Source: Gemmatimonadales bacterium
Lineage (GTDB): Bacteria; Gemmatimonadota; Gemmatimonadetes; Gemmatimonadales; JACORV01
Length of the DNA stretch: 64,000 nt
Reading direction: 5' to 3'
Assembly (NCBI GenBank): GCA_030697825.1
Contig: JAUYOW010000135.1
Span: 8,556-72,555, forward strand
Shown piece after piece: positions 1 through 43,389 of the stretch. The position numbers were made by a program, and so were the translations under genes. Each line of letters opens with the position of its first letter. Positions within the stretch are counted from its first letter, which is position 1. The notes beneath the pieces are model-generated. The model had not been told where the DNA came from. It saw only the letters and a program-made list of their open reading frames with translations, and made no database searches.

Positions 1-1831
1 CGCACCGTTCGCGTTCGCCGGCTCGGGACGTGGTTACTTCGTCCGGTCGGCCGACGCGTACACGCTGGTCGCCGGGGTGAGGAGTGGCGGCGTCCTGCGC
101 GGGCTGGAGGCGGCGCTCACCGAGACGGAGCGGGTGGCGCGGTACGGCTTCACCGCCACGGAGCTGGAGCGGGAGAAGACCGATGTGTTGCGCGGTTACG
201 AGCAGATCTATGCCGAGCGCGAGCGGCGTCAGTCGGCCTCCCACGCCGCCGAGTGCATCCGCCATATTCTCCAGGGCGAGGACATGACCGGCGCCGAAGT
301 CGAGTATCGCATGCACCAGCAGTTCCTGCCCGGGGTCACGCTCGAGGAAGTGAACCGGCTGGCCCGCGAGTGGCTGGTGGACCGGAATCGCGTCGTCCTC
401 GTCAACGCACCAGAGCAGGAGGGCACGTCGATCCCGACGGAGGCCCAGCTCCTGGCGGTGTTCGGCGCCGTGCGGGCGCAGACGATCGAGCCGTACCACG
501 ACTCGACCTCCTCCGCCCCGCTCGTGGCGCACCTGCCGGCGCCCGCGGCGATCGTCTCCGAGCGCCGCATTCCCGAGATCGGCGTCACCGAGTGGAGACT
601 GGCGAACGGGGTGCGGGTGGTGCTCAAGCCGACCGACTTCCAGGCCGACCAGATCCTGCTCTCCGCCAGCAGTCCCGGCGGGACGTCGCTCGCCGCCGAC
701 TCGAACTATGTGTCTGCGTCCTTTGCGACGACGGCCGTCGGCGCCGGCGGAACTGGCGAGTTCAGCGCGATCGACCTTGGCAGGATCCTCACAGGCAAGA
801 TCGCGTCCGCCAACCCCTTCGTCGGGTCCCGGACCGAGGGCATGAGCGGCTCAGCCTCACCGAGGGACGTCGAGACGATGCTCCAGCTCGTCTATCTCCG
901 CTTCACAGCCCCGCGGCGCGACAGCGCGGCGTTCGTCGCATTTCGCCAGACCTTCCAGGCTCAGCTCGCGAACCGGGGAGCGAGTCCCCAAGCGGCGTTC
1001 CAGGACACTATCGGTGTCACGATGAGTCAGCACCACGTCCGGGCCCGGCCGCTTAACGCGGCCGTGCTGGACGAGATCGACCTGGATCGCGCGATGACGT
1101 TCTACCGAGAGCGGTACGCCGACGCGAGCGACTTCACGTTTTTCATCGTCGGCAACTTCTCGGTTGATTCGCTGCGGCCTCTGGTGCAGCGATATCTAGG
1201 CGGGCTTCCCTCGATCAACCGGCACGAAGCGGGTCGGGACGAGGGCATCCGCCCGCCGACCGGCGTCGTGGACAGGGTGGTGCGCCGCGGCGTCGAGCCG
1301 CAGAGCCAGACGTTCCTCTCCTTCACGGGACCGTTTGAGTGGAGCAGGGTCAACCAGTACGTGCTGGGGTCGTTAGGTGAGGTGCTACAGCTGCGCCTGC
1401 TCGATCGCCTGCGGGAGGCGCTCGGCGGCACCTACAGCGTCAGCGCGAACGCCGGCGGCGGCCGGGACGCGCCGCAGCGATATGGGGTCACGATCCGGTT
1501 CGGCAGTGCGCCCGAACGGGTCGAGGAGCTGACCCGGGTGGTGTTCGCGGAAATCCAGGCGATCAGCGACTCCGGCCCGAGCGCGGCCGAGCTCGAGAGG
1601 GTGAAGGAGACGCAGCGGCGCCAGCGCGAGACCGGCTTGCGTCAGAACGCCTTCTGGTTGAGCGTGCTGGGCAGCGCCTATCAGTATGGCGACGACCCGC
1701 GCATCGTGTTGACCTACGACACGCTGGTGAGCGGCCTCACCGCGGCGGCGATCCGCGATGCGGCCCGGCGCTACATCAGGACCGACAACTACGTCCACCT
1801 GACGCTGCTCCCGGAGGCCCCGCACCAGTGA
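1..1831 (+). CDS. M16 (pitrilysin/insulinase) family zinc peptidase, C-terminal portion; 5' end lies upstream of the window
   Basis: The reading frame is open from nt 2 (APFAFAGSGRGYF...) and runs into track ORF 77..1831. The length and sequence style match the non-catalytic C-terminal M16 domains. Family call is by eye only. Confidence 0.75.
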   Translation, partial: APFAFAGSGRGYFVRSADAYTLVAGVRSGGVLRGLEAALTETERVARYGFTATELEREKTDVLRGYEQIYAERERRQSASHAAECIRHILQGEDMTGAEVEYRMHQQFLPGVTLEEVNRLAREWLVDRNRVVLVNAPEQEGTSIPTEAQLLAVFGAVRAQTIEPYHDSTSSAPLVAHLPAPAAIVSERRIPEIGVTEWRLANGVRVVLKPTDFQADQILLSASSPGGTSLAADSNYVSASFATTAVGAGGTGEFSAIDLGRILTGKIASANPFVGSRTEGMSGSASPRDVETMLQLVYLRFTAPRRDSAAFVAFRQTFQAQLANRGASPQAAFQDTIGVTMSQHHVRARPLNAAVLDEIDLDRAMTFYRERYADASDFTFFIVGNFSVDSLRPLVQRYLGGLPSINRHEAGRDEGIRPPTGVVDRVVRRGVEPQSQTFLSFTGPFEWSRVNQYVLGSLGEVLQLRLLDRLREALGGTYSVSANAGGGRDAPQRYGVTIRFGSAPERVEELTRVVFAEIQAISDSGPSAAELERVKETQRRQRETGLRQNAFWLSVLGSAYQYGDDPRIVLTYDTLVSGLTAAAIRDAARRYIRTDNYVHLTLLPEAPHQ

Positions 1832-1998
1832 GCGGGCGGCTTGACTGCGGGCGCATCACGCCTCGGCGCCTCGGTTGGCGGCCGTAGCAAGAATGTGGTT
1901 GAGCGGGCAGCGCAATGCGCTCTGGGCTCGCGTGGTGGGCCGCATGACCCCGCTACGGTGGAGGGGTGTGCAGCGGCTGACTACGCGCTGGTTGGGCT

Positions 1999-2030
1999 GA
2001 CAAACGAAGAGCCCCGCCACCCAGCGGGGC
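1999..2030 (-). terminator. Possible intrinsic terminator read on the minus strand (orphan, no recognised minus-strand gene feeds it)
   Basis: 7-bp stem GCCCCGC (2011-2017) / GCGGGGC (2024-2030) with a 6-nt loop. On the minus strand it is followed by TCTTCGTTTGT. Confidence 0.3.
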
Positions 2031-2180
2031 CGAGCCGCGGTCCTGCCCTGCGAACCAGTCCAGTACCTTGTGAGTTGGAGTTCGTCGTAGAGATCGTGCT
2101 CGGACATCCGGGCCTTTCGGCTTGACGGACCTCGCTTCCGGCCCCACTATCGTCAGCATACCCGACAGGCCAGGTGGGAC

Positions 2181-2675
2181 ATGAACGCGAAGCCGATCCG
2201 GGAAGGCATCTTCTGCGGTATCGTCGGTGCGGCCGCACTCGCTTTGTGGTTCCTGATCGTGGACTTGACGGCGGGACAACCCTTCCGCACTCCGGCGGCG
2301 CTCGGCGCCGGCCTCTTCCGCGGCCTCCGCGCCGCCGACGCGGCCACCATGCCCGGAGGCACCGTCCCGATGATCCTGGGCTACACGGTCTTCCACGTCA
2401 TGGTCTTCATCGTGGCCGGGATAATCCTGGCCCACGTGGTCGCGATGCTCGAGCGCGAGCCGGCGGTCTTCCTGATCGCCTTCTTCGCCCTCTTCGTGTT
2501 CTACGAGTTCAGCTACCTGGTGTTCGCGCTCGCGTTCGTCCAGCGCGTACTTCAGGACGTGAGTTGGCCCGCGCTGCTCGTGGGCAACGGCGTCGCGGCG
2601 GCGTCAATGGGCATGTTCCTCTACCGGCGCCACCCCAAGCTGCACTTCAAGCTCGAGCTCAAACTCAATGCCTGA
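2181..2675 (+). CDS. Hypothetical integral membrane protein (about 4 TM segments)
   Basis: Track ORF of 164 aa with hydrophobic helices (GIVGAAALALWFLIV, VFHVMVFIVAGIILAHVV, FLIAFFALFVFYEF, LLVGNGVAAASMGMFLY). No family recognised. Confidence 0.6.
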   Translation: MNAKPIREGIFCGIVGAAALALWFLIVDLTAGQPFRTPAALGAGLFRGLRAADAATMPGGTVPMILGYTVFHVMVFIVAGIILAHVVAMLEREPAVFLIAFFALFVFYEFSYLVFALAFVQRVLQDVSWPALLVGNGVAAASMGMFLYRRHPKLHFKLELKLNA

Positions 2676-2693
2676 GACGCGTCGCTCGGGTCC

Positions 2694-3023
2694 CTACCGC
2701 TTGGCCATGCAGTCCGGGCAGGGACAGGTCTCGAGCAACCGCTCCCACGGGTAGATGCCGGACGAGTGCCCGTCGCTCCACTGGACGTGCATCGCGTAAG
2801 CTCCGACCAGCTTGATCGCGAGCGCGCGCACCCCCGGCGCAACGGAGCCCGGATCGAGGATCGGGCGGCGGGTCATCTCCTCCACGCACGCGGCGCACTG
2901 ACAGGCGAGGCGCAGCGCCCGCGCCTCATACGTCGCGACGTGCCCGCGCTCCTCCCACTGGATCTCGATCTTCGCCCCGTCGTCGATGCGCTTGACGACG
3001 TAGGGCACCGGGATCGGCTTCAC
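2694..3023 (-). CDS. DUF971 family protein (gamma-butyrobetaine hydroxylase-like N-terminal domain)
   Basis: 109 aa with the typical pattern ...L.I.W.DGH...Y....LR..C.CA.C...: EIQWEERGHVATYEARALRLACQCAACVEE ... HVQWSDGHSSGIYPWERL. GTG start preceded by AGGAG. Confidence 0.7.
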   Translation of the reverse strand: MKPIPVPYVVKRIDDGAKIEIQWEERGHVATYEARALRLACQCAACVEEMTRRPILDPGSVAPGVRALAIKLVGAYAMHVQWSDGHSSGIYPWERLLETCPCPDCMAKR

Positions 3024-3030
3024 GTTTCTC

Positions 3031-3092
3031 CTGTGCGTCTGCGCGTCTGTGCGCCTGTGCGCCTGTGCGTCTGGGCGCCTGTGCGTCTGTCT
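3031..3092. repeat. Tandem octamer array (CTGTGCGY) x7 plus a partial unit, filling the gdh / DUF971 spacer
   Basis: Units in order: ctgtgcgt ctgcgcgt ctgtgcgc ctgtgcgc ctgtgcgt ctgggcgc ctgtgcgt ctgtct. Read directly from the sequence. Confidence 0.9.
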
Positions 3093-3093
3093 T

Positions 3094-4356
3094 CTATGGC
3101 CAGATCCCCCTCAGCTCCGTGACATGCGCCACCCGGTCCAGCGCCACGACGTATGCGGCGGTGCGCGCGTCCACCTTCTTCTCCTTGGCCACGTCGAAGA
3201 CCCGGTGGAAGGCGCTCACCATCTTCTTCTTCAGCTTGCCGTCCACCGTCTCCGCGTCCCACTGCTCGTCCTGGATGTTCTGCACCCACTCGTAGTACGA
3301 CACCGTCACGCCGCCGCCGTTGGCGAGGATGTCGGGCACGACCGGGATGCCACGGCGCTGCAGGATCTCGTCGGCGGCGGGCGTGGTCGGCCCGTTGGCG
3401 GCCTCGGCGACCAGCCTGGCGCGGACCTTCTCGGCGTTCTGCGACGTGATCTGGTTCTCGAGCGCGGCGGGGATCAAGACGTCACACTCCAGCTCGAGCA
3501 GCTCCGCGTTGCTGACGGGCGACGTGCCGGGGAAGCCGGCCACACTCCCGGTTTTCGCCTTGTGCGCGAGCAGCGCCGCCGGGTCGAATCCCCCGGGCGA
3601 CGCGACGCCGCCGCTCGAGTCGCTCGCGGCGACGATCTTCGCCCCCCCCTGGTGCGCGATGATCGCCGCGAACGAGCCGGCGTTGCCGAACCCTTGCACT
3701 GCGACGCGCGCGCCCGAGAGCGCGCGCACCCCGTCCACCAGCCCGCGCCCGATCGCCTCCTCGACGCAGAAGATGCAGCCCCGCGCCGTGGCGGTGGCCC
3801 GGCCGTGAGAGCCCCCCAGTTCGAGCGGCTTGCCCGTCACGACCGGCAGGTTGTTCTGGCCTTTGTGCATCATGTCGTAAGTGTCGAAGATCCACGCCAT
3901 GGTGGTGGCGTCGGTGTAGACGTCGGGCGCGGGGATGTCCACCGTCGGGCCGATTGCGTTGCCGATCTGGGTGACGAACCGGCGGGTGATGCCGCGCTTC
4001 TCGTCCACGGAAAGGCGCTTGCCGTCGCACACCACCCCGCCCTTCGCACCCCCGAAGGGGATGTCCATCACGGCGGTCTTCCACGTCATCCACGCCGCCA
4101 GCGCCTTCACCTCGTCCTCAGTGACGTCCGGGTGATAGCGGATACCACCCTTGAACGGGCCACGGGCGTTGTTGTGCTGCACCCGGTAGCCGGTGAAGAC
4201 GCGCATCGAGCCATCGTCCATCTTGACGGGGAAGTCGATGCGGATCGTGCGCTCCGGCCGGCGCAGGTTTTCCAGCAGGCCTTCGCTCGCCCGCACGTGC
4301 CGTGCGGCGCGCGTGAATTGCTCCTGGGCGATGTGGAAGGGGTTGAGGTCTTCCAT
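3094..4356 (-). CDS. gdh: Glutamate dehydrogenase (Glu/Leu/Phe/Val dehydrogenase family)
   Basis: 420 aa. Catalytic-lysine motif PFGGAKGGV, Rossmann motif VAVQGFGNAGS, and a typical C-terminus YYEWVQN. Confidence 0.9.
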   Translation of the reverse strand: MEDLNPFHIAQEQFTRAARHVRASEGLLENLRRPERTIRIDFPVKMDDGSMRVFTGYRVQHNNARGPFKGGIRYHPDVTEDEVKALAAWMTWKTAVMDIPFGGAKGGVVCDGKRLSVDEKRGITRRFVTQIGNAIGPTVDIPAPDVYTDATTMAWIFDTYDMMHKGQNNLPVVTGKPLELGGSHGRATATARGCIFCVEEAIGRGLVDGVRALSGARVAVQGFGNAGSFAAIIAHQGGAKIVAASDSSGGVASPGGFDPAALLAHKAKTGSVAGFPGTSPVSNAELLELECDVLIPAALENQITSQNAEKVRARLVAEAANGPTTPAADEILQRRGIPVVPDILANGGGVTVSYYEWVQNIQDEQWDAETVDGKLKKKMVSAFHRVFDVAKEKKVDARTAAYVVALDRVAHVTELRGIWP

Positions 4357-4423
4357 GAAACGCTCCCGCCGCTCCGAGGGGAGCGGAGAGACTATCCCGC
4401 CGGGGAGCGAAGCGCCAGGCTGG

Positions 4424-5257
4424 CTAGCGCGGAACGGCCGCGATGATGCGGAGCGGCGCCCCGCTGCCCCCGCCGATCTTCATCGGCAGCGCGATGACGT
4501 ACGCGCCGATGTGCGGCAGAGCGTCGAGCGTGCCGAGGTTCTCGAAGGCGGGGATGTCGGCCGCGAACAGGATGCGGTGACTCTGGTAGTCTCGCGACTG
4601 GCCGCGGTCGATGCTTGGCGTGTCGAGGCCTATCGCCGAGATGTGGCGCTCGCGGACCAGCCAGCGCGCGGCGTCGGGATCGAGGCCCGGGAAGTGCAGC
4701 TCCGGCACGGCCGCGGGTCCGGTCTTGGGGGTGCCGAGGTAACGGCGCCGTTCGTTCCAGTATTGCGCCCACCCGGTCCTGAGGAGGACGATGGCGCCGT
4801 CCTCGATGCGCCCATACCCGGCCTCCCAGCGCTGAAGATCCTTCACCGACACGAGGTAGTCGGGGTTCCACCCGGCCGAATCCCGCACGTCCACCACGGC
4901 CGCCGGACCGATGAGCTGCCGGACCGGGATGGCATCAGCCGCTCGGCGTCCCTCGGCGAAATGGATCGGGGCGTCGAGGTGGGTCCCGCCATGCTCCGCG
5001 GCGGAAAAGTTGTTCGCCGAGTAGTAGTACCCACCCGGCGTCTGACCCGCCGCCACCACCTCGAGCGTGAACGGCTTGGCAGTCGGCCAGTAGATGGTCT
5101 GGCTGGAGAAGGAGTGGGTGAGGTCGATCCACTGCATGCCGTTCCCGAACACCTGTCGGGCGGCGGCGCCATTCGACGGTGGCTTCTGGCAGGCGCCGAG
5201 CAAGAGAAGCGGCGCGAGGACGGGAATCGCGAGTCGGTTGGTCGCCATAGGCGCCAC
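4424..5257 (-). CDS. Cyclase family protein (kynurenine formamidase-like), lipoprotein-type signal
   Basis: 277 aa. N-terminal signal ...LLLLGAC, then the HGGTHLDAP motif and ...GLDTPSID..., which are characteristic of the putative cyclase family. Confidence 0.7.
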   Translation of the reverse strand: MAPMATNRLAIPVLAPLLLLGACQKPPSNGAAARQVFGNGMQWIDLTHSFSSQTIYWPTAKPFTLEVVAAGQTPGGYYYSANNFSAAEHGGTHLDAPIHFAEGRRAADAIPVRQLIGPAAVVDVRDSAGWNPDYLVSVKDLQRWEAGYGRIEDGAIVLLRTGWAQYWNERRRYLGTPKTGPAAVPELHFPGLDPDAARWLVRERHISAIGLDTPSIDRGQSRDYQSHRILFAADIPAFENLGTLDALPHIGAYVIALPMKIGGGSGAPLRIIAAVPR

Positions 5258-5344
5258 GTTATAGCACCCGACGCGCCAATCCGCTACCTGGACCGCCGGC
5301 CCGCAAACGCACCAACGCGCTGGCGCGCTGGCCCGTGCGCTCCA

Positions 5345-6133
5345 TCAAAGGCCCCACAACCCGCCACCCATTCTCCGAATCCTCCTGAGGTTCAAGCTCG
5401 TTCTATGTTGAACGGCCATCAACGGCCCCACCACCCGCCACACATTCTCCGCCACGATCCGGTGCCCCGCCGGCGTCGGGTGGATCCCATCGGCCTGATT
5501 GAGCGAGTCCACCCCGCCCACCCCTTCGAGCAGGAACGGGATCAGTGGCAAATGCTCGCTCCGCGCGAGGTCCCGGAAGAGCGCACGGAAAGCGGACGCG
5601 TACCGAGGGCCGAGGTTCGGGGGTACTTCCATGCCGGCCAGCACTATCGTCATGGTGGAGTCGTAGACGCGGGCCCGCGCGATGATCGCCTCGAGGTTGG
5701 CTCGCGTCGAGTCCACGCCCTGCCCCCGGAGCCCGTCGTTGGCGCCCGTCTCGATGACGAGCACCCGGATCGGTCCCTGAAGCAGCCAATCGAGCCGGCG
5801 GCGTGCGCCCGCGGACGTCTCCCCCGAAAGGCCGGCGTTGACCACGCGCCAGCCGAGGCCGAGGCTGTCGAGACGGCGCTGGACGACCGCGGGATAGGCG
5901 GAGTCGGGATCGACGCCGAGACCGGCGGTGAGGCTCGTCCCGAGGAACAGCAGGATCGGGGCATCGGCGGGCAAGCGCGAGGAGAGACCTCCCGCGCGAG
6001 GGACGGCGCCGGGCGTACCGTCCGACGACCCGGGCGCGGGAGCTTGCTCCGACCGCGCGCACGCCGCCAGGAGGAACATCATCGCCGAGGCGTGTATCAT
6101 TCGGGCCATGCTCATCGCGAACGACCTCACCAA
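5345..6133 (-). CDS. SGNH/GDSL hydrolase, TesA-like arylesterase / acyl-CoA thioesterase I; start uncertain (6133, 6115, 6109 or 6100)
   Basis: SGNH blocks are present: FLGTSLTAG (block I), NAGLSGETS (II), ETGANDG (III), DGIHPT (V). It lies divergent to an ybbA/ybbP-like ABC pair, as in the E. coli tesA-ybbA-ybbP arrangement. Confidence 0.75.
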   Translation of the reverse strand: MVRSFAMSMARMIHASAMMFLLAACARSEQAPAPGSSDGTPGAVPRAGGLSSRLPADAPILLFLGTSLTAGLGVDPDSAYPAVVQRRLDSLGLGWRVVNAGLSGETSAGARRRLDWLLQGPIRVLVIETGANDGLRGQGVDSTRANLEAIIARARVYDSTMTIVLAGMEVPPNLGPRYASAFRALFRDLARSEHLPLIPFLLEGVGGVDSLNQADGIHPTPAGHRIVAENVWRVVGPLMAVQHRTSLNLRRIRRMGGGLWGL

Positions 6134-6803
6134 GATCTACCAGAGCGGCGGCCGGCCGCTCACCGTCCTCAAGGAAGTTAGCCTGGCCGTCGAGCCCGGT
6201 GGATTCCTCGCGGTCGTGGGGCCTTCGGGGTGCGGCAAGACCACCCTTCTCGGCCTCCTGGCCGGCCTCGACGTGCCGTCCTCGGGAACGGTGCGGCTCG
6301 ATGGCCAGGACCTCCACGCGCTCGGAGAGGACCAGCGGGCACGATTGCGGGGAGAAAAGGTCGGCTTCGTCTTCCAGACGTTCCAGTTGATACCGACGCT
6401 CACGGCCCAGGAGAACGTCCAGGTCCCGATAGAGCTGGGGAGCAGACGCGCCGACGCACCTGCGCGCAGGAACGGCGCTTCCGAGCGGGCGCGCGACTTG
6501 CTCGAGCGGGTCGGGCTCGGCGGCCGTGAGCACCACTACCCCGCCCAGCTCTCCGGCGGCGAGCAGCAGCGCGTCGCCATCGCCCGCGCCTTCGCCAACC
6601 AGCCCCGCATCCTCTTCGCCGACGAGCCGACCGGCAACCTCGACGCCGCCACCGGCTCGCGGGTCATCGAGCTGCTCGTCGAGTTGAACCGCGAGCGGGG
6701 CACCACGCTGGTCCTCGTCACCCACGACGCCGACCTCGCGGCCCGCGCGAAGACCACCCTGCACCTCAGGGACGGCGCGGTCGTGCCAGCCGGGTCGCGG
6801 TGA
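6108..6803 (+). CDS. ABC transporter ATP-binding protein (YbbA/LolD-like)
   Basis: Track ORF 5928..6803 trimmed to ATG 6108 (MLIANDLTKIYQSGG...). Walker A GPSGCGKTT, signature LSGGEQQR, Walker B ILFADEPT. Confidence 0.85.
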   Translation: MLIANDLTKIYQSGGRPLTVLKEVSLAVEPGGFLAVVGPSGCGKTTLLGLLAGLDVPSSGTVRLDGQDLHALGEDQRARLRGEKVGFVFQTFQLIPTLTAQENVQVPIELGSRRADAPARRNGASERARDLLERVGLGGREHHYPAQLSGGEQQRVAIARAFANQPRILFADEPTGNLDAATGSRVIELLVELNRERGTTLVLVTHDADLAARAKTTLHLRDGAVVPAGSR

Positions 6804-9373
6804 GGAAACTCCGCTTCGTGCTCGCGCTCGCCTGGCGCGAGAGCCGTGCCTCGCGCCGCCGACTCCTCCTCTTCGCCTCCGCCATCTCGCTCGGCGTCGG
6901 CGCACTCGTGGCCATCGGCTCGTTCACGGCGAACCTCGAGCGCGGAGTGCGCTCCCAGGCGCGCGAGCTCCTCGGCGCCGACCTCGAGCTGGGCAGCAGC
7001 CGGCCGTTCTCGCGGAACCTCGAGGCCGTCCTCGACTCCGTTACCCGCGCCGGCGCGCGCGTCGCGCGCCGATCCAGTTTCTCGTCCATGGCGTACGTGA
7101 GGCGCACCGAAGGGATCCGCCTCGTCGACGTCCGAGCGGTGGGCCCGGGCTTCCCGTTCTACGGTGACGTCGTGACGAGCCCCGCGGGCCGCTGGCGCGC
7201 GCTCGACACCGCGCGCGTGGCGATCGTGGACACCAGCCTCCTGGTCGCGCTGAACGCGCACGTCGGTGACACGCTCGAGATCGGCAGCGCTCAGTTCCCG
7301 ATCGCCGGCGTCGTTTCCGAGGTGCCAGGCCATGTCACCGGCGGACTGAACGCCTTCGGCACGCAGGTCTACATCCCCATCCGACACGTCCCCGCCACCC
7401 GCCTGATCGTCTTCGGCAGCCGGGTGCGGAACCACGCCCTGATCAAATTCGCCGACCCGCGGGACGTGCGACGCCTGATCATCCGCCATCGCGCGCTCTT
7501 CAACCGCGAGCGCGTCGGTGCGCAGACCGCGGACGAAACCCAGTCCGAGATCACGGGCGTCCTCGACAACCTCTCGACCTTTCTACAGTTCGTGGGGCTG
7601 ATCGCGCTACTCCTGGGCGGCATCGGCGTGGCGAGCGGCGTCGGCGCGTTCGTCGCCGGCAAGATCGATACCGTCGCGACGCTCCGCTGCCTGGGCGCCG
7701 GCCGGCCGCTGGTCTTCGCGGTCTACCTCACCCAGGCCGCCGTGCTCGGCCTCATCGCCGCGACCGCGGGGGCCGGCCTCGGGGTCGGTACGCAACTCAT
7801 GCTCCCGTGGCTGCTCCGGGACCTCCTCCCGGCGAACGTGCGGTTCCGCCTGGAGCCGGACGTCGTACTCGGCGGGATCGGGGTCGGGGTCGCGGTCGCC
7901 GTGCTCTTCGCGCTGCGCCCGCTCCTTGAAGTGCGCCTGGTGTCCCCGCTCCAGGCGATCCGCCGTGCCTATGAGACCGCCCCGGTGCGCGCGCGGGATC
8001 CATGGCGCCTTGCGGCCCAGGGCTTGGTCGCCATCGGCGTGCTCGCGCTATGCATGTACCGCAACGACGAACCTCGGGTCGGGCTGGGGTTCGCGGTCGC
8101 CATCGGGCTCTCCGTGGGGATCCTCGCACTGTCCGCGCGCGGCGCGGTCGCGCTCGCCCGCCGCGTCACCCGCGGGCCGCGGTTCCGCGCCAGCTGGCCA
8201 TACGTCGTCCGCCAGGGGCTCGCCAACCTCCACCGGCCGCGCAACCAGACCCAAAGCGTCGTGATCGCGCTCGGCTTCGGCGTGGGACTGCTGTCGGCGC
8301 TTTACCTGGTGCAGGCCAACCTCATGAGCTTCGTGCGCGCCAGCACCGCCGCGGTGCACGGCCGCCCTAACCTCGTCTTCATCGACATTCAGAACGACCA
8401 GGACTCGGGCGTGAGGAGCCTGGTGCGCGACGCCGGCGCCCCGCTGCTCCAGGTCGTGCCCATCGTGCCGATGAAGATCGCGGCGGTCAACGGCCGGTCG
8501 AAGGAAGACCTGCTCAAGGACACTTCCCGTGCGGCGCCCCGGTCGTGGACGCTGCGGCGCGAGTACCGCTCGACCTACCGCGACAGCGGTGTGGCATCCG
8601 AAAGACTGGTGCGCGGCGCTTGGTGGACCGGCCGCGGCGAGGCCGCGCCGGGAATGCCCTTCCCCGTCTCGCTCTCCACCGACCTCGCCACCGACCTCCA
8701 CGTCGGCGTCGGCGATGCGATCACTTGGGACGTCAGCGGCGTGACGGTCCAGACCCGGGTGGTGGGGCTGCGGGAGGTGGACTGGGCGCGCTTCGAGACC
8801 AACTTCTTCGCGGTCCTGAGCACGGCGGCGCTCGAGCGAGCGCCCCGGTCGTACGTGGTCCTCACGCGGATGGACGACGCTGGGGCGCGGGCCCGGCTCC
8901 AGCGTGCCGTCAGCGAGCGGTTCCCCAACGTCACCAGCTACGACGTGGCGCTCCTCCAGCGCACGGTGGAGCGGATCCTGAGCCGCGTCGCCCTCGCGAT
9001 CCGCTTCATGGCGGTGCTGAGCCTGGGCACCGGCGCGCTGGTGCTGCTGGGCGCCGTCGCCGCGGGACGGCTCGAGCGCATCCGTGAGGGCGCGCTGCTC
9101 AAGGCCCTGGGCGCCACTCGCCTCCAGATCGAGCGCATCTTCCTCGCCGAGTACCTGGCGCTCGGGGCCCTGGCCGCACTGGTCGGGATCGGCCTGGCGA
9201 GTGGGGGGGGGTGGGCCTTCACGCACTACGTGCTCGAGCTGCGCTTCTCCGTCCCCGCCCCCGCGATGTTCGCGGTCTTCGGAGTCACCACCCTGCTCGT
9301 GACGGTCGTGGGGATGACGGCCAGCCGAGAGGTATTCCGGAGGACCGCCATGGAGGTGCTGAGGGATGTCTAG
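6800..9373 (+). CDS. FtsX-like ABC transporter permease (YbbP-like, duplicated FtsX domains)
   Basis: 857 aa. 4-nt overlap with the upstream ATPase gene. Multiple TM clusters are separated by large soluble loops, as in YbbP/MacB-type permeases. Confidence 0.8.
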   Translation: MRKLRFVLALAWRESRASRRRLLLFASAISLGVGALVAIGSFTANLERGVRSQARELLGADLELGSSRPFSRNLEAVLDSVTRAGARVARRSSFSSMAYVRRTEGIRLVDVRAVGPGFPFYGDVVTSPAGRWRALDTARVAIVDTSLLVALNAHVGDTLEIGSAQFPIAGVVSEVPGHVTGGLNAFGTQVYIPIRHVPATRLIVFGSRVRNHALIKFADPRDVRRLIIRHRALFNRERVGAQTADETQSEITGVLDNLSTFLQFVGLIALLLGGIGVASGVGAFVAGKIDTVATLRCLGAGRPLVFAVYLTQAAVLGLIAATAGAGLGVGTQLMLPWLLRDLLPANVRFRLEPDVVLGGIGVGVAVAVLFALRPLLEVRLVSPLQAIRRAYETAPVRARDPWRLAAQGLVAIGVLALCMYRNDEPRVGLGFAVAIGLSVGILALSARGAVALARRVTRGPRFRASWPYVVRQGLANLHRPRNQTQSVVIALGFGVGLLSALYLVQANLMSFVRASTAAVHGRPNLVFIDIQNDQDSGVRSLVRDAGAPLLQVVPIVPMKIAAVNGRSKEDLLKDTSRAAPRSWTLRREYRSTYRDSGVASERLVRGAWWTGRGEAAPGMPFPVSLSTDLATDLHVGVGDAITWDVSGVTVQTRVVGLREVDWARFETNFFAVLSTAALERAPRSYVVLTRMDDAGARARLQRAVSERFPNVTSYDVALLQRTVERILSRVALAIRFMAVLSLGTGALVLLGAVAAGRLERIREGALLKALGATRLQIERIFLAEYLALGALAALVGIGLASGGGWAFTHYVLELRFSVPAPAMFAVFGVTTLLVTVVGMTASREVFRRTAMEVLRDV

Positions 9374-22421: not shown

Positions 22422-22482
22422 TGAGCGACCATGTCGCCGCCGGCCCGAACCACAGCGCTCGCACGTGTTAGGCTACCCCATT

Positions 22483-22725
22483 TCACGCGAGGTCAGCCAG
22501 ACGGACACCGCGGCCGCGCCGCAGCGCCTCTCGTGCCCCAGCGACCTGCTCGAGGAACTCGGGATGGTGTTCCAAGCGGTACTCGAACCAGGCCTCCTCG
22601 GTGTCGAATCCGATCAGCACGCCAGCCGGGCGCCCGTGCTTCGTAATCACGATCTCCTCTCCTGCCGCCTGTCGCAGATACCGAGAGAAATCGTCCTTAA
22701 CTCGCGCCAGCGCCACCTTCTTCAT
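22483..22725 (-). CDS. Type II antitoxin, Phd/YefM family
   Basis: 80 aa. MKKVALARVKDDFSRYLRQAAGEEIVITKHGRPAGVLIGFD... is the classic Phd/YefM N-terminus. It lies downstream of, and overlaps by 29 nt, a RelE/ParE-like ORF. Confidence 0.8.
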   Translation of the reverse strand: MKKVALARVKDDFSRYLRQAAGEEIVITKHGRPAGVLIGFDTEEAWFEYRLEHHPEFLEQVAGAREALRRGRGVRLADLA

Positions 22726-23014
22726 CGGGCGTTCCCTCCTCTTTTAGCCAGGTCTCCGCCTGCGCCTTCGTCACGATGGCGAGAACCTCGACCCGCTTCT
22801 CCCCGACGTCGTAAAACACTCGTATATCCCCGACGCGCAATCGAAACTGCGGCTGCGCCAGTCCGCGGAGGCGCTTGATGCGACTCTTGCTAACGCGCGT
22901 GGGCTGGTGGGACAAGTGCCGGTCCATGGCATCCCGCACGACCGCCCGCAGGTTGGCCTTGAGCGCTCGGTACTGAGCCACCGCAGTTGGGGCGAGGATG
23001 ACCTCGTACGCCAT
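22697..23014 (-). CDS. Type II toxin, RelE/ParE superfamily (toxin-first gene order)
   Basis: 105 aa. ...RIKRLRGLAQPQFRLRVGDIRVFYDVGEKRVEVLAIVTK... matches the RelE/ParE core (YRLRVGDYRVIY...V.I..I..R). Confidence 0.75.
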   Translation of the reverse strand: MAYEVILAPTAVAQYRALKANLRAVVRDAMDRHLSHQPTRVSKSRIKRLRGLAQPQFRLRVGDIRVFYDVGEKRVEVLAIVTKAQAETWLKEEGTPDEEGGAGAS

Positions 23015-23073
23015 TCTGGCCAGAAGATAGCTACACTAGGATGGCCGGGCAAGGGGAGCCGGCGAACGGGGCA

Positions 23074-23299
23074 GCCTAACGAACAGGGTTTAGCTGCGGG
23101 CCGGCGCGTTGGCCGCGCTGGCCCCGCGTTACGCCGCCACAGCTCGCGAACCCAACATGCCAGCGCGGCCAGCCGGCCTCGTCAGCTACAACCCGAGCCT
23201 GTGCGAAAACACCGTTCTGAGCACCCCTAAGTTGTTGATTTACAACGCTGCCACTGCTGCCAAAGTGGCGTTTTCACACAGGCTCACCCGTAGTTAGGC
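23074..23299 (-). other. attC-like recombination site (R'' GCCTAAC ... R' GTTAGGC) interrupted by a 91-bp palindromic insertion
   Basis: GCCTAAC starts 1 nt after the ParE stop and GTTAGGC ends the site. Inner stem arms 23159-23194 / 23086-23122 are homologous to the site at 42364-42489. Confidence 0.5.
23195..23285. mobile_element. MITE-like 91-bp element with 19-bp terminal inverted repeats, flanked by a 4-bp direct repeat ACCC
   Basis: TIRs gagcctgtgcgaaaacacc (23195-213) and ggcgttttcacacaggctc (23267-285), 17/19 complementary. ACCC at 23191-94 and 23286-89. The interior is AT-richer than the surroundings. Confidence 0.4.
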
Positions 23300-23300
23300 G

Positions 23301-23594
23301 TTACAGGCGACTCTGCCACTCGCGCGGATCCCGACGCGCATGCAGAACTGCTAGAATCGCAATGCGCCCCGGTGTCGGCACGTAGTAGACGGAGAACGGA
23401 AAGCGGCGCAACCTTGCGCGGCGTGCATCTGGGGCGACCAGTTGATAGCCCTGAGGCATGCGTTGAATGAGGCCGAAGCAGACATCGACAGCACGCAAGA
23501 ACTCGGTGCCTAGCCCCGCAGCGCGGGTTTCGTACCACTCGGCAGCGAGCAGCATGTCCGTTTCGGCCGCTGCCCGGATCAGAAGGGTGGGCAT
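23301..23594 (-). CDS. Type II toxin, ParE/RelE family
   Basis: 97 aa. ...AAEWYETRAAGLGTEFLRAVD...RRARLRRFPFSVYYV...RIAILAVLHARRDPREW is a typical ParE-like toxin. Confidence 0.8.
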   Translation of the reverse strand: MPTLLIRAAAETDMLLAAEWYETRAAGLGTEFLRAVDVCFGLIQRMPQGYQLVAPDARRARLRRFPFSVYYVPTPGRIAILAVLHARRDPREWQSRL

Positions 23595-23810
23595 TTACCT
23601 GATGAGCTTGTACAGCCGCTCGCGTACCTGTTCCCAAGGAATGCCTGCTTCAGGGTGAGCGCGGTAGTCTGCCAGTCGCCGCTCGAGCTCTTGGAGATGC
23701 CACTCGGGGACTGGGATTTGCTCGTCGTCGATGCTATCCCAGAGATCCTCCACGAGCTGGAGGCGCTCCGGGACAGACAGGTGGCTGAAATCCATGAGTT
23801 TGGGTGCCAT
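23595..23810 (-). CDS. Addiction-module antitoxin (putative addiction module component family)
   Basis: 71 aa. LSVPERLQLVEDLWDSI...WHLQELERRLADYRAHPEAGIPWEQVRERL is the signature of this small antitoxin family. Its stop abuts the ParE start. Confidence 0.75.
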   Translation of the reverse strand: MAPKLMDFSHLSVPERLQLVEDLWDSIDDEQIPVPEWHLQELERRLADYRAHPEAGIPWEQVRERLYKLIR

Positions 23811-24085
23811 GGGCTCAATCTGGTGGGCGGACTGCCGGCTGGCAAGTGACGCAGATCCGAGACCGCATGGCCGGGACCATGTCCGTTCGGGTGGCTTCCT
23901 CTGTGACGCCTAACTTGTAGTTTACCCTACTTGTCTTCCAGTCCGGGGCGACGTTCGCGTGATAGCTCGGCCTACGCCGTGCTTATGCGACAAACCGGCG
24001 TATAACTCGGCCCGCAACAATACGACGCCCCGCCCCAACCCGCCAGCCGGCCGGCCAGCGGCGACGCACTAGAACCAGGACCGGG

Positions 24086-40662: not shown

Positions 40663-40783
40663 GAGCGGCCGTTGGCCGATGGCCATTGGCCGTTCGGCGA
40701 GCATGAGGGCGTGCCGCATCGCGACGTAGTAGTCCGCCAGGGCGCGCCTCACGCTCGACCACCGATGGCGCCGCACGCGCGAC

Positions 40784-40809
40784 GCGCCTATGCCTAAGCG
40801 GATAGGCGC
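40784..40809 (+). terminator. 8-bp hairpin (GCGCCTAT / ATAGGCGC, 10-nt loop GCCTAAGCGG) downstream of the SnoaL-like gene
   Basis: Read directly. There is no U-tract, so terminator function is speculative. Confidence 0.25.
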
Positions 40810-40931
40810 CGGGTGGGCGGGCCGGCTTGCCCGGTTGGTGGCGTGAGCGCACCTTGAACGGCGTCGCTGCGACCGGCCCGGGGGAACGGTGGCGCCGGCG
40901 CCGGCCGCTGCATATCATCGCGAGTCTTGCA

Positions 40932-41027
40932 GGCTAACTCGGCTACGGGGCCGAGCTATCACGCGAGCTTCGCAGCGGTTGTGGTTTTGGACGTGAAGCC
41001 CAATTGCTAGTAAAGACCTGGTTAGCC
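40932..41027 (+). other. attC- or attI-like site preceding cassette 1 (GGCTAAC ... GTTAGCC)
   Basis: The terminal 7-mers are exact reverse complements, and the complementarity extends outward (TGCAGGCTAAC / GTTAGCCAGGCA). There is an internal hairpin CTCGGC-TACGGG-GCCGAG. The inner arms are otherwise poorly paired. Confidence 0.35.
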
Positions 41028-41031
41028 AGGC

Positions 41032-41466
41032 ATGGCGACAGACCACGCACTGAAACTGGGGAAGCTTGTTGGCAACCTCCAATCCCTGGAGGCGGTTCTT
41101 CGCGTCTATCTGCTCAAGATTGGGGAGAAACCGAGACCGGCGAAGCAACAGTCGCATTCGTATTGGGATCTCGTCGTCGGCGACGTAATCAACGCTGACG
41201 AATTCTCGAACTACGACACCCTCGGCACTCTCGTCAGGAAATTCAACGACGACGTCCGCCCGCGCGACACCTCACTATGCGTCGACCCCGCAGTGGTAGA
41301 CGTTCGCGATCTGCTGGCTCACGGACGTGTCGCTGGCTCAGCCGACGACACGGCGACCTTGATGATCGTGAAGTTCGACAAACCGTCCGCCGGGACAGTG
41401 ACAGTGGTGGCGAGCGCCCTGAATGGACGACGCCTGGTTTGCCGCGAACGTCGCATTATCTTATGA
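41032..41466 (+). CDS. Cassette 1 ORF, hypothetical protein (144 aa as listed; 3' end probably frameshifted)
   Basis: Track ORF. The last ~15 residues (NGRRLVCRERRIIL) look out-of-frame, whereas the +1 frame from 41423 reads MDDAWFAANVALSYEQLIRVGKALERYAA and stops at the TAA inside the GCCTAAC box. Confidence 0.5.
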   Translation: MATDHALKLGKLVGNLQSLEAVLRVYLLKIGEKPRPAKQQSHSYWDLVVGDVINADEFSNYDTLGTLVRKFNDDVRPRDTSLCVDPAVVDVRDLLAHGRVAGSADDTATLMIVKFDKPSAGTVTVVASALNGRRLVCRERRIIL

Positions 41467-41506
41467 GCAACTCATCAGGGTCGGAAAGGCACTCGAGCGG
41501 TATGCG

Positions 41507-41604
41507 GCCTAACTTCCGGACGAACCCGATGGCGGAGTCGATTCCCGTTTCGCCGTGGCAACGCGCGTGCCGGCTCCACCCACGGGTTATCCGGCGCGTT
41601 AGGC
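41507..41604 (+). other. attC-like recombination site, 98 nt, canonical architecture
   Basis: GCCTAAC-TT-CCGGA-CG-AACCCG ...(variable)... CGGGTT-A-TCCGG-CGC-GTTAGGC. It has R and L box pairing, an unpaired spacer and extrahelical bases. It starts 41 nt after the ORF stop. Confidence 0.7.
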
Positions 41605-41631
41605 GGCCCGCTAGAGATCGAGGACTGTCCG

Positions 41632-42330
41632 TTGGACGCGATTGACTGGAGAAGGATTGTGCGCTACTTGCCTTCATCGTCCCAATGGCGTAACTGGAGC
41701 CTTCCCAGCCGATTGACGGCGATAGGCGCGGCGATTTCAGTCGTTTCTCTCATAGTAGCTGTTGTGCTTGCATTGCTCGACCAAGCTGCGGATCGGAGCC
41801 GCGCTCGCTTGATGGAGGAGGAAGCCGAGCTACGAAGTCGGCTCGAGTCCGCTGCCCTATCATCAGTTCAGGGCAAGCAGGACGAGCAGTTCCTTGCGCT
41901 CCTCTCGGCGCTCGCGGTGCTTATTGGTGAGCAATCTTCTCTCTCTAGCCGAGTGGCCGATACGGTCACTTTTTCCGGCACAGGCGTTGGCGAGTTCCCG
42001 ACCGGTCTCGCAGTTCTGTCGCGAGTCTTTCAGCAGGATTACCCAGGTGTAGCGAACGACGAGTTGCTTGTCGAGATCGTTGTCGGGTTACCTTCTCCTT
42101 CCGGGCAGAACGACGCACGCCCTGGGGTGCTCGTACAGATTCACCAGCAGGGCTTAAGCTACGAGACGAACGTCTTTCGCGTTGGTGAGCTCGAGCCCCA
42201 TGTTCTCATGCGGGCCCTCGCTGCGGCTGGATTACGCGTGTCCTCAGAGGTCGCGGCCGAAGGCGGCGTCTGGGTCACGATATTCGACCCCGCAAACGGG
42301 AAATCTGCAAGACTTCGAGCGCCGTCTTGA
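41632..42330 (+). CDS. Cassette 2 ORF, single-pass membrane protein of unknown function (start TTG 41632 or GTG 41659)
   Basis: 232 aa. One TM (LTAIGAAISVVSLIVAVVLALL), a charged coiled-coil-like stretch, then a ~130-aa C-terminal domain. No family recognised. Confidence 0.55.
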   Translation: MDAIDWRRIVRYLPSSSQWRNWSLPSRLTAIGAAISVVSLIVAVVLALLDQAADRSRARLMEEEAELRSRLESAALSSVQGKQDEQFLALLSALAVLIGEQSSLSSRVADTVTFSGTGVGEFPTGLAVLSRVFQQDYPGVANDELLVEIVVGLPSPSGQNDARPGVLVQIHQQGLSYETNVFRVGELEPHVLMRALAAAGLRVSSEVAAEGGVWVTIFDPANGKSARLRAPS

Positions 42331-42363
42331 ATCGATGCCCTGAGGCCAGTCTCCGGGTGGGCC

Positions 42364-42489
42364 GCCTAGTTAGGATTTGAACCTGCGGAGCCGGCTGGCC
42401 GCGCCGGCGACCAGGCGGTAAGTGGTTCAGGAACCGCGCACCGGCGCGGCCACGACGCCGGCTCACAGGTTAAAACCACTCTGTTAGGC
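42364..42489 (+). other. attC-like recombination site, 126 nt (degenerate R'' GCCTAGT, R' GTTAGGC)
   Basis: Long imperfect palindrome with arms at 42373-42408 and 42441-42477. It is homologous, with compensatory changes, to the site at 23074-23299 on the other strand. Confidence 0.6.
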
Positions 42490-42523
42490 AGCAGCGGTTA
42501 CTCACACGCACCTAGGCGGCACC

Positions 42524-42940
42524 ATGACCGCGTGGCTCATTCTCCTAATCATCTTCGTTGCCGGGTGTATCGGTGGCATTACCAATGCGGCGATTGCTGG
42601 CGAGTTGCGCTTGCCGTACACCGATCCCGAAGCGCGGGTCTACAGGCCTGGCTGGGTCGGGAACGTGCTCATAGGGGGCATAGCGGCTCTCGTCTTCTGG
42701 GGCCTATACGGCCCGATGGCCGCGGCAGTTCTCATGGGCCCTATCGATCCGGCGGCTCCGCAGCCTCTACTTCGAGTCTCTGAGCTGTTCGCGGCATTGC
42801 TCACGGGAATCGGCGGCGGTAGACTACTTACTGCGGAGGTCGAACGGCGCGTGTTCGATAGAGAGAAGAAGGCCCTCACCGATACGAAGGACGCTCTTGC
42901 AACTGCTGTTAAGAGCCTTGCTGAGGAGGTAAGACAATGA
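42524..42940 (+). CDS. Cassette 3 ORF A: small 3-TM glycine-zipper-rich membrane protein with a C-terminal amphipathic helix
   Basis: 138 aa. TM segments WLILLIIFVAGCIGGITNAAIAG, WVGNVLIGGIAALVFWGLYGPMAAAVLMG, LFAALLTGIGGGRLL. ATGA overlap with ORF B. Confidence 0.6.
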   Translation: MTAWLILLIIFVAGCIGGITNAAIAGELRLPYTDPEARVYRPGWVGNVLIGGIAALVFWGLYGPMAAAVLMGPIDPAAPQPLLRVSELFAALLTGIGGGRLLTAEVERRVFDREKKALTDTKDALATAVKSLAEEVRQ

Positions 42941-43389
42941 CGGACGGCACTCCAAAGGCACCCGATATCGATGCAATTGAGCTTATCGAAACGCTCGCAA
43001 CCCAGATCCCGAGCTCCAGTTCCTTTACCTCGGCAAGCCTAGCCCAACAGATCCTGGAGCAAACCCGTCGGCTCCACGCCTTCCGCAGTGCCCTCGTGGT
43101 TGGCCGCGAGGCGGGCGCCAAGGCCCACGAGATGGTCGAGGCGCAGGTACAGGAGGCGGAGGTCGGGAAGACCTACCAAGGCAAGGTGAAGACGACGACG
43201 GCCTTCGGGGCGTTCGTCGAGATCTTGCCCGGGGTGGAGGGACTGGTCCACATCTCGGAGCTCCAGCACGGCCGCACCGAGAAGACCGAAGACGTCGTGA
43301 AGAAGGGCGACTCGGTCACGGTCAAGGTGCTGGAGGTCGACGAGCACGGGAAGATGAGGCTCTCGCGCAAGGCGGTGCTCGAGAAGTAG
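42937..43389 (+). CDS. Cassette 3 ORF B: chimeric protein, novel ~55-aa N-terminus fused to a PNPase-like linker plus S1 RNA-binding domain
   Basis: The C-terminal AEVGKTYQGKVKTTTAFGAFVEILPGVEGLVHISEL...GDSVTVKVLEVDEHGKMRLSRKA is an S1 domain closest in style to the PNPase C-terminus. Codon usage switches at about nt 43100. Confidence 0.6.
   Translation: MTDGTPKAPDIDAIELIETLATQIPSSSSFTSASLAQQILEQTRRLHAFRSALVVGREAGAKAHEMVEAQVQEAEVGKTYQGKVKTTTAFGAFVEILPGVEGLVHISELQHGRTEKTEDVVKKGDSVTVKVLEVDEHGKMRLSRKAVLEK

Follow-up and report, generated by a model that had tools for sequence, protein, structure and literature searches.

Two elements on opposite strands of the DNA examined here, a 64-kb stretch (the window) of ~69% G+C from a Gemmatimonadales bacterium, are in our reading homologous attC recombination sites of integron gene cassettes and belong to a family of Gemmatimonadales-type chromosomal integrons; we put the probability of this reading at about 0.9. 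One of them, B2, spans 42364-42489 on the plus strand, and the other, A2, spans 23074-23299 on the minus strand. The main result is thus confirmatory, in that the recognition of attC sites from two copies, by sequence alone, was correct. The left arms that had been aligned, at 42373-42408 (+) and 23194-23159 (-), and the right arms, at 42441-42477 (+) and 23122-23086 (-), are correct in both sequence and position, and both sites do end in GTTAGGC, at 42483-42489 and 23080-23074, respectively. The three compensated stem pairs described in the earlier note are real, and we add a fourth, GAGCCGG/CCGGCTC versus GGGCCGG/CCGGCCC, in which an A-T pair is replaced by G-C beside the GCCGGC block (alignment columns 40/121). 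For A2, the homology to B2 stands but the extent does not: its 5' end is the R'' box at 23299-23293 and not a point near 23200, owing to an insertion of 91 bp. Several observations go beyond what had been noted before, among them that the window is without intI, that the insertion inside A2 is a MITE and that the R'' box of B2 is damaged. The elements of the window are of an ordinary, known kind, save for this attC-targeting MITE in A2 and for a leader that is shared by the two clusters in which the sites lie.

B2 closes a cassette containing an ORF at 41632-42330 and is identified by its fold, by its place in the family alignment and by covariance model R1, which matches 42358-42496 (+) with 118.8 bits (E 2e-29). 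As single-stranded DNA it folds better than its dinucleotide shuffles, with z of -4.6/-5.9. Its R' box is the terminal GTTAGGC, while its R'' box, GCCTAGT at 42364-42370, is degenerate. Because this box reads GCCTAGT and not RYYYAAC, the triplet opposite the GTT at which cleavage would take place cannot pair and, judging from the lost AAC, B2 may no longer be able to recombine. A2 closes a cassette that encodes an Unstab_antitox/ParE pair, with the stop codon at 23301 only one base ahead of an R'' box of GCCTAAC (23299-23293), and model R1 gives 98.7 bits for 23067-23210 (-). When the MITE and one copy of its target duplication are removed in silico, A2 adopts a canonical attC fold in which the R box is paired at 7/7 positions (z -7.1). 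As they stand, A2 and B2 fold as single-stranded DNA with z of -4.1 to -5.9, values that none of 200 dinucleotide shuffles equals, and both strands of the two hairpins fold well. The bulged base closest to the R box is a C on the bottom strand; studied attC sites usually carry T and G at the bulged positions near the R box.

The third site, B1, at 41507-41604 on the plus strand, is 98 bp long, runs from GCCTAAC to GTTAGGC and closes a cassette with an ORF at 41032-41466. It is of a different subtype from B2 and A2 and is more divergent, with a model R1 match of 30 bits at 41501-41611 (+), for which E is 2e-5 over the whole search and 6e-7 when the search is local. The R'' and R' boxes are fully complementary in B1 and complementary in A2, and in part in B2. 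In addition, a truncated site lies at 22422-22473 on the minus strand, with R'' GCCTAAC (22473-22467) placed 9 nt past the stop codon of a Phd antitoxin gene (22485-22483) and ~45 nt remaining between this box and the stop codon of uppS. The segment 22400-22480 shows neither an attC-like fold nor a match to model R1, and we take it as a remnant. Model R1 finds exactly three attC sites in the window, in two clusters, and switching the search filters off adds none. GTTAGGC occurs nine times in the window where 2.8 occurrences are expected, and seven of the nine lie within 22467-23914 or 41507-42489. The 15-mer GCCGGCTGGCCGCGC has exact matches in the window only at 42390-42404 (+) and 23163-23177 (-). 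Taken together, the attC sites of the window appear to be decaying: the R'' box of B2 is mutated, the toxin-antitoxin (TA) array closes with a truncated attC and A2 is split by the MITE, while B1, from its sequence, is the sole site that looks intact. Because the sites are mutated, truncated and split, the window probably holds fossilising cassettes rather than an active array.

Relatives of the two sites were sought in one genome per species with the pattern GCCGGCTGGCCGCGC N25-55 GCGCGGCCA NNN CGCCGGC. The scan returned 14 loci, most of them from Gemmatimonadales or Gemmatimonadetes MAGs, and nearly every match has a RYYYAAC box, mostly GCCTAAC, ~20 nt upstream of the stem and a GTTRRRY box ~20 nt downstream. 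In their canonical form, the boxes read GCCTAAC (R'') and GTTAGGN (R'). A family site runs from R'' GCCTAAC across a short spacer to L'' nnnnTTGAAGCTG, continues with the stem GCCGGCTGGCCGCGC...GCGCGGCCAnnnCGCCGGC and L' CAGCTTAAnnnn, and reaches R' GTTAGGC after a further spacer. The L-box stem and both R boxes are present in 17 close relatives from the 14 loci. Single-base bulges are confined to the '' arm, where they occupy conserved positions, and the terminal loops, 29-39 nt long, are variable in sequence. Some family sites lie on short contigs of MAGs that carry other labels, namely L002, L004 (Novosphingobium sp.), L009, L010 (Acidobacteria) and L014 (Betaproteobacteria), and 'Bacterium HR33' is also among the non-Gemmatimonadales labels of the scan matches; these off-phylum labels reflect either mis-binning or the transfer of cassettes between phyla.

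The earlier note had proposed a conserved, folded element on the strength of the compensated changes between two copies, and the wider family bears this out. The outer stem varies in sequence among the copies, with its complementarity kept. In an alignment (A1) of the 17 close members, RNAalifold, which derives the structure from A1 itself, places 32 pairs, of which 12 show compensatory changes; the R box was then added for the pair counts. By these counts, 94.1% of cells are paired (86.5% in shuffled alignments), 15 of 39 pairs are changed on both sides (8.3 when shuffled), 48 cells are changed on both sides (14.3 when shuffled) and the covariation score is 0.240, as opposed to 0.105. None of 500 shuffles reaches the observed value on any of these four measures; on a fifth, the number of further pair types, one of 500 does. 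When the 3' partners are slid by 1-3 columns as a control, pairing falls to 28-41%. Helix 2, formed by L'' and L' as an imperfect hairpin, is 95% paired, with 10 of its 20 pairs changed on both sides, and the R-box cells are 83% paired. The invariant core columns of A1 are fixed by the search pattern and hence carry no information; the covariation signal sits in the outer helix, in the top of the inner helix and in the R box, all of them columns that the pattern did not select. A family site in L006, at 2840-2984 (-), has R'' GTCTAGC and R' GCTAGCC, so that AGC/GCT replaces the conserved AAC/GTT triplets in the two boxes and the change, at what is presumed to be the point of crossover, is compensated.

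Model R1, built from A1, was used to search the window and the 14 loci, where it finds 45 distinct attC sites. Within every locus, the sites share one orientation (7/7 in each of L004, L005 and L006, and 4/4 in L002), and neighbouring sites lie 348-1885 bp from each other. The longest ORF points the same way as the attC in 20 of 27 intervals, and in 14 of those 20 its stop codon falls at most 72 nt before R''. The position of the sites relative to ORF ends, one of the checks that the earlier note had proposed, is thus that of attC: co-oriented arrays at cassette-length spacing, with stop codons usually <75 nt before R'' and sites at the 3' ends of cassettes. The family had also been likened to the homogeneous attC families of sedentary chromosomal integrons. 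This holds in that near-identical copies occur, and does not hold in that the arrays of relatives mix two or three subtypes; L006, for instance, is mostly of the GCCGGCTGG type and L005 mostly of the GAAGCGCG type, and only the outer L box, TGAAGCTG/CAGCTTA, is common to all subtypes.

A cognate type of intI, also proposed as a check, was found beside an array of this kind in the genome of a relative from the Gemmatimonadales. On a 1.36-Mb Gemmatimonadales contig (L012), the gene at 5828-6853 (-) matches the TIGR02249 'integron integrase' profile with 419 bits against a cut-off of 265. After it come a GTTAGCC junction and, beyond that, co-oriented cassettes at 130-5485 (-), the second of which ends in a family site. 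IntI fragments adjoin family sites at four further loci, L008, L009, L015 and L007. The L012 integrase gene is co-oriented with its cassette array and has its 3' end towards the array; in class 1 integrons, the two are divergent. Within the 64-kb window, tblastn with IntI1 and XerC finds no tyrosine recombinase or intI (best E 0.34-0.58), and neither cluster there has an intI beside it. Both queries served as probes only, and the L012 match was confirmed separately by NCBIfam.

The TA array recognised in the earlier note is a true cassette cluster. On the minus strand from 23914 to 22467, it consists of a GTTAGGC junction at 23908-23914, where the first cassette starts, an Unstab_antitox/TIGR02574 antitoxin gene (23595-23810) with a ParE-like toxin gene (23301-23594) in the same cassette, site A2, a ParE/RelE-type toxin gene (22697-23014) paired with a Phd/YefM antitoxin gene (22483-22725), and the truncated GCCTAAC site. 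The second cluster, on the plus strand, begins with a GTTAGCC junction at 41022-41028, followed by the ORF at 41032-41466 (144 aa, function unknown), B1, the ORF at 41632-42330 (232 aa, function unknown), B2 and two overlapping genes at 42524-43389, whose products are a membrane protein of 138 aa and an S1-domain protein of 150 aa. The proteins of 41032-41466, 41632-42330 and 42524-42940 have no match in Pfam, NCBIfam or PADLOC. The S1-domain protein, encoded by 42937-43389 (+) in a gene that overlaps the upstream membrane-protein gene by 4 nt, has its best matches in polynucleotide phosphorylase, at the S1 domain of the C terminus (positions 599-689 of a profile of 689). Model R1 finds no attC after this gene pair, which is part of the inserted segment when the window is compared with related genomes.

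Homologues of the genes that flank the clusters carry Gemmatimonadales names. The distance from the SnoaL-like gene to the convergent MFS gene is ~105 nt in L089 and 2.85 kb in the window, and that from the DUF1761-like gene to uppS is 13 nt in L092 and 1.66 kb in the window. Since the flanking genes are nearly contiguous in these relatives, both clusters have been inserted between core genes that converge. The window holds three attC sites, in two clusters, and no intI, so that these are CALIN/SALIN-type clusters and not an integron platform: the stretch from 41.0 to 42.5 kb is a CALIN with two attC sites, and that from 22.4 to 23.9 kb is a TA cluster with one full and one truncated attC. CALINs are defined, and integrons are reported in Gemmatimonadota, in PMC8618304. 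Insertion of cassettes at genomic attG sites can give rise to small CALINs and to single attC sites (bioRxiv 10.1101/2022.09.11.507474), and both clusters fit the CALIN/SALIN class as well as the proposed origin of small CALINs through IntI-mediated insertion into genomic sites. Comparisons with metagenomic contigs further show that what lies on one side of G|TT can change independently of what lies on the other. The ParE/Phd pair recurs in L036 (72% and 87% amino acid identity) behind a different, short attC. In L041, the orthologous 3' end of the SnoaL gene is followed by a leader that is 90% identical over 82 nt up to GTTAG, and then by an unrelated cassette, which we read from its sequence as probably BrnT/BrnA-like.

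The leader in front of the first junction is shared by the two clusters of the window. In the TA cluster it spans 23915-24085 (-) and holds GGCCGAGCTATCACGCGAACGTCGC (23972-23948) as well as an upstream half-copy, GGCCGAGTTATACGCC; the paralogous leader of the second cluster spans 40944-41028 (+) and ends in the GTTAGCC junction. A 25-mer, GGCCGAGCTATCACGCGARCKTCGC, at 40949-40973 (+) is identical at 23 of 25 positions to 23972-23948 (-) (E 7e-5), and from there the similarity continues, weaker but colinear, to the GTTAGSC junction. The motif GGCCGAGCTATCACGCGA stands 40-55 nt before the first GTTAGSC junction in both clusters. Among the collected loci, only L041 matches, as an ortholog of the second-cluster leader. 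In viral contigs, an 18-mer of the leader has four matches, where ~2.6 are expected by chance on a rough estimate, one of them (L016) in an apparent coding sequence. The leaders (40925-41035 and 23900-24030) were also considered as diverged attC sites and rejected, as their folds do not improve on those of shuffles (z -0.3 to -1.2) and they score only 4.3 bits with model R1. Just upstream of the second leader, at ~40676-40943, the window has ~264 extra nucleotides relative to L041; this segment ends in GGCTAAC and has neither a clear target duplication nor a coding signal. The leader may be a landing pad of the attI type, or it may be a passenger sequence. It is absent at the empty sites (L089, L092) and so arrived with the cluster, and since the orthologous leader in L041 stands before a different cassette, its junction has been used for cassette exchange.

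These properties of the leader are also what would be expected if the clusters were what is left of one or two true integron platforms from which intI was deleted in place, with the leader as the former attI: paralogous leaders ending in GTTAGSC head both clusters, came in with them and border a junction at which cassettes have been exchanged. We consider such an origin unlikely. tblastn finds no trace of an intI pseudogene in the window, no similarity links the leader to the region near intI in L012 and the flanking core genes, being 13-105 nt apart in relatives, leave no room for an ancestral intI. Insertion of cassettes into genomic sites remains our preferred account of the clusters.

Whether the sites belong to integrons at all has to be weighed against two further explanations. 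REP/BIME-like or MITE-like intergenic palindromes, unrelated to integrons, would likewise be GC-rich imperfect palindromes found 3' of genes, with both strands folding well, and would be at home in a window that has no integrase. Every one of the copies, however, lies between complementary RYYYAAC and GTTRRRY boxes, the copies are set in co-oriented arrays at cassette spacing with integron integrase genes adjoining, and the same cassettes are found behind different sites and different cassettes at the same junction. Only three copies are present in 64 kb, with no genome-wide scatter, and each of the three has R boxes and a cassette context; we regard an origin from repeats of this type as extremely improbable. 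Hardly better placed is the idea that the hairpin is mainly a structured RNA under RNA-level selection, such as a 3'-UTR stabiliser, a terminator or a TA-associated regulatory RNA, which we hold to be very improbable. The hairpin does lie 3' of co-oriented ORFs, with which it would be co-transcribed, and covariation alone cannot tell the folding of DNA from that of RNA. Yet no T-run follows the stem, the family follows unrelated genes, and the conserved R boxes, together with a junction at G|TT where cassettes switch, are features of recombination and not of RNA. Scans of the window with Rfam (at gathering thresholds) and for tRNA and tmRNA found nothing.

The 91-bp element that splits A2 occupies 23195-23285, in the L'' arm and 7 nt past R''. 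It has ~19-bp terminal inverted repeats, GAGCCTGTGYGAAAAC..., and is flanked by a 4-bp target duplication, GGGT, at 23286-23289 and 23191-23194. L004 carries two copies (2378-2468 and 2961-3051), one 100% identical, inverted and at the same position in a closely similar attC, and the other 99% identical; L011 carries a 93% copy (239-330) that duplicates its own target, GGCT. A scan of metagenome contigs with a pattern of the two repeats yielded 67 loci with 70 copies (L020-L086), which brings the copies in the collected loci to 74. When the metagenome loci, the genome loci and the window are taken together, 56 copies, with 49 distinct flanks, lie beside RYYYAAC, and the element starts exactly 7 nt after R'' in 48 of these 49 distinct attC flanks. 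Perfect 4-bp duplications are found in 37 of the 49, and their sequence tracks the target (CGCT, CGCA, GGCT, CGCC, GGGT, GAAT, ATTA and others); the two orientations are represented 37 and 12 times. Excision of the element in silico restores attC hairpins. The element is thus a MITE, short, non-coding, bounded by inverted repeats and a target duplication and dispersed in both orientations, and it strongly favours one position in attC. Because of its inverted repeats and its target duplication, it was presumably moved in trans by a DDE transposase.

A search of the collected loci for the terminal repeats of an autonomous parent gave only pairs of adjacent MITEs, and the MITE pattern has no match in viral contigs. 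In five loci (L053, L054, L065, L066 and L082), there are elements outside attC that share the ends of the MITE, have another interior and stand between TNA-like duplications of 3 bp (TCA, TAA, TGA); this suggests a related MITE family with another choice of target. Our literature search found no published description of an attC-targeting MITE. A joint reading of the two less ordinary features would be that the MITE represents an undescribed attC-homing family, a third and mechanistically distinct class of attC-targeting element, and that the leader, GGCCGAGCTATCACGCGA...GTTAGSC, is possibly an orphan attI-like landing pad; we offer this tentatively, at slightly less than even odds. If it is true, the MITE could disable or remodel cassettes and the leader would let cassettes accumulate away from intI. 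As an element of fixed position, the MITE is a natural probe of how a DDE-type transposase recognises attC and of how cassettes become immobilised, while the shared leader and the turnover of cassettes at its junction bear on how CALINs form.

The integrons of Gemmatimonadota, a soil phylum, appear in reviews and have hardly been described, and our literature search found no description of an attC family from this phylum. A sequence-conserved attC family that is widespread in Gemmatimonadales is now documented together with its integrase context, and covariance model R1 and its alignment could serve to detect cassettes from this lineage in metagenomes of soil and groundwater. If the sites behave like the attC sites that have been studied, one strand of each would fold into an imperfect hairpin, IntI would bind this hairpin and cut G|TT of R', and the ORF and its attC would then move as one unit. 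Recombination by an integron integrase would act on the folded bottom strand; what the loci show is an association of family sites with the integrase gene in L012 and with IntI fragments at four loci.

Elements that target attC are known in the form of IS1111-attC elements and group IIC-attC introns (PMC11187229, PMC3001079). The MITE resembles them in inserting at one fixed position of attC, and differs in being non-coding, in having inverted repeats and a 4-bp duplication and in occurring in both orientations. The IS1111-attC elements, like the group IIC-attC introns, insert in an orientation-specific way and are not known to make such a 4-bp duplication. The clusters of the window, for their part, are like CALINs in that they are short chromosomal insertions which hold one or two full attC sites, lack a flanking transposase and lie far from any intI; the class with one or two attC sites is the commonest size among CALINs (bioRxiv 10.1101/2022.09.11.507474). 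Unlike CALINs and attG insertions, both clusters have a paralogous leader of ~80-170 nt before the first G|TTAGSC. The consensus of attG is only GWT, and such a leader is no described feature of attG insertions (bioRxiv 10.1101/2022.09.11.507474).

The closest parallel for the sites themselves is the attC (59-base element) of sedentary chromosomal integrons, for instance the Vibrio cholerae repeats (VCR). The present family differs from it in its Gemmatimonadales host, in the length of its sites (~126-140 bp) and in a GC-rich stem that is conserved over many MAGs. Two or three subtypes stand side by side in its arrays, with only the outer L box in common, the integrase of L012 is co-oriented with the cassettes and the window has no integrase. 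In other respects the two are alike: both have the order R''-L''...L'-R' with RYYYAAC/GTTRRRY boxes and bulges on one arm, both lie at the 3' end of promoterless cassettes in co-oriented arrays, both have compensatory changes that preserve the structure and both occur as near-identical copies within an array, as at five of the seven sites in L006.
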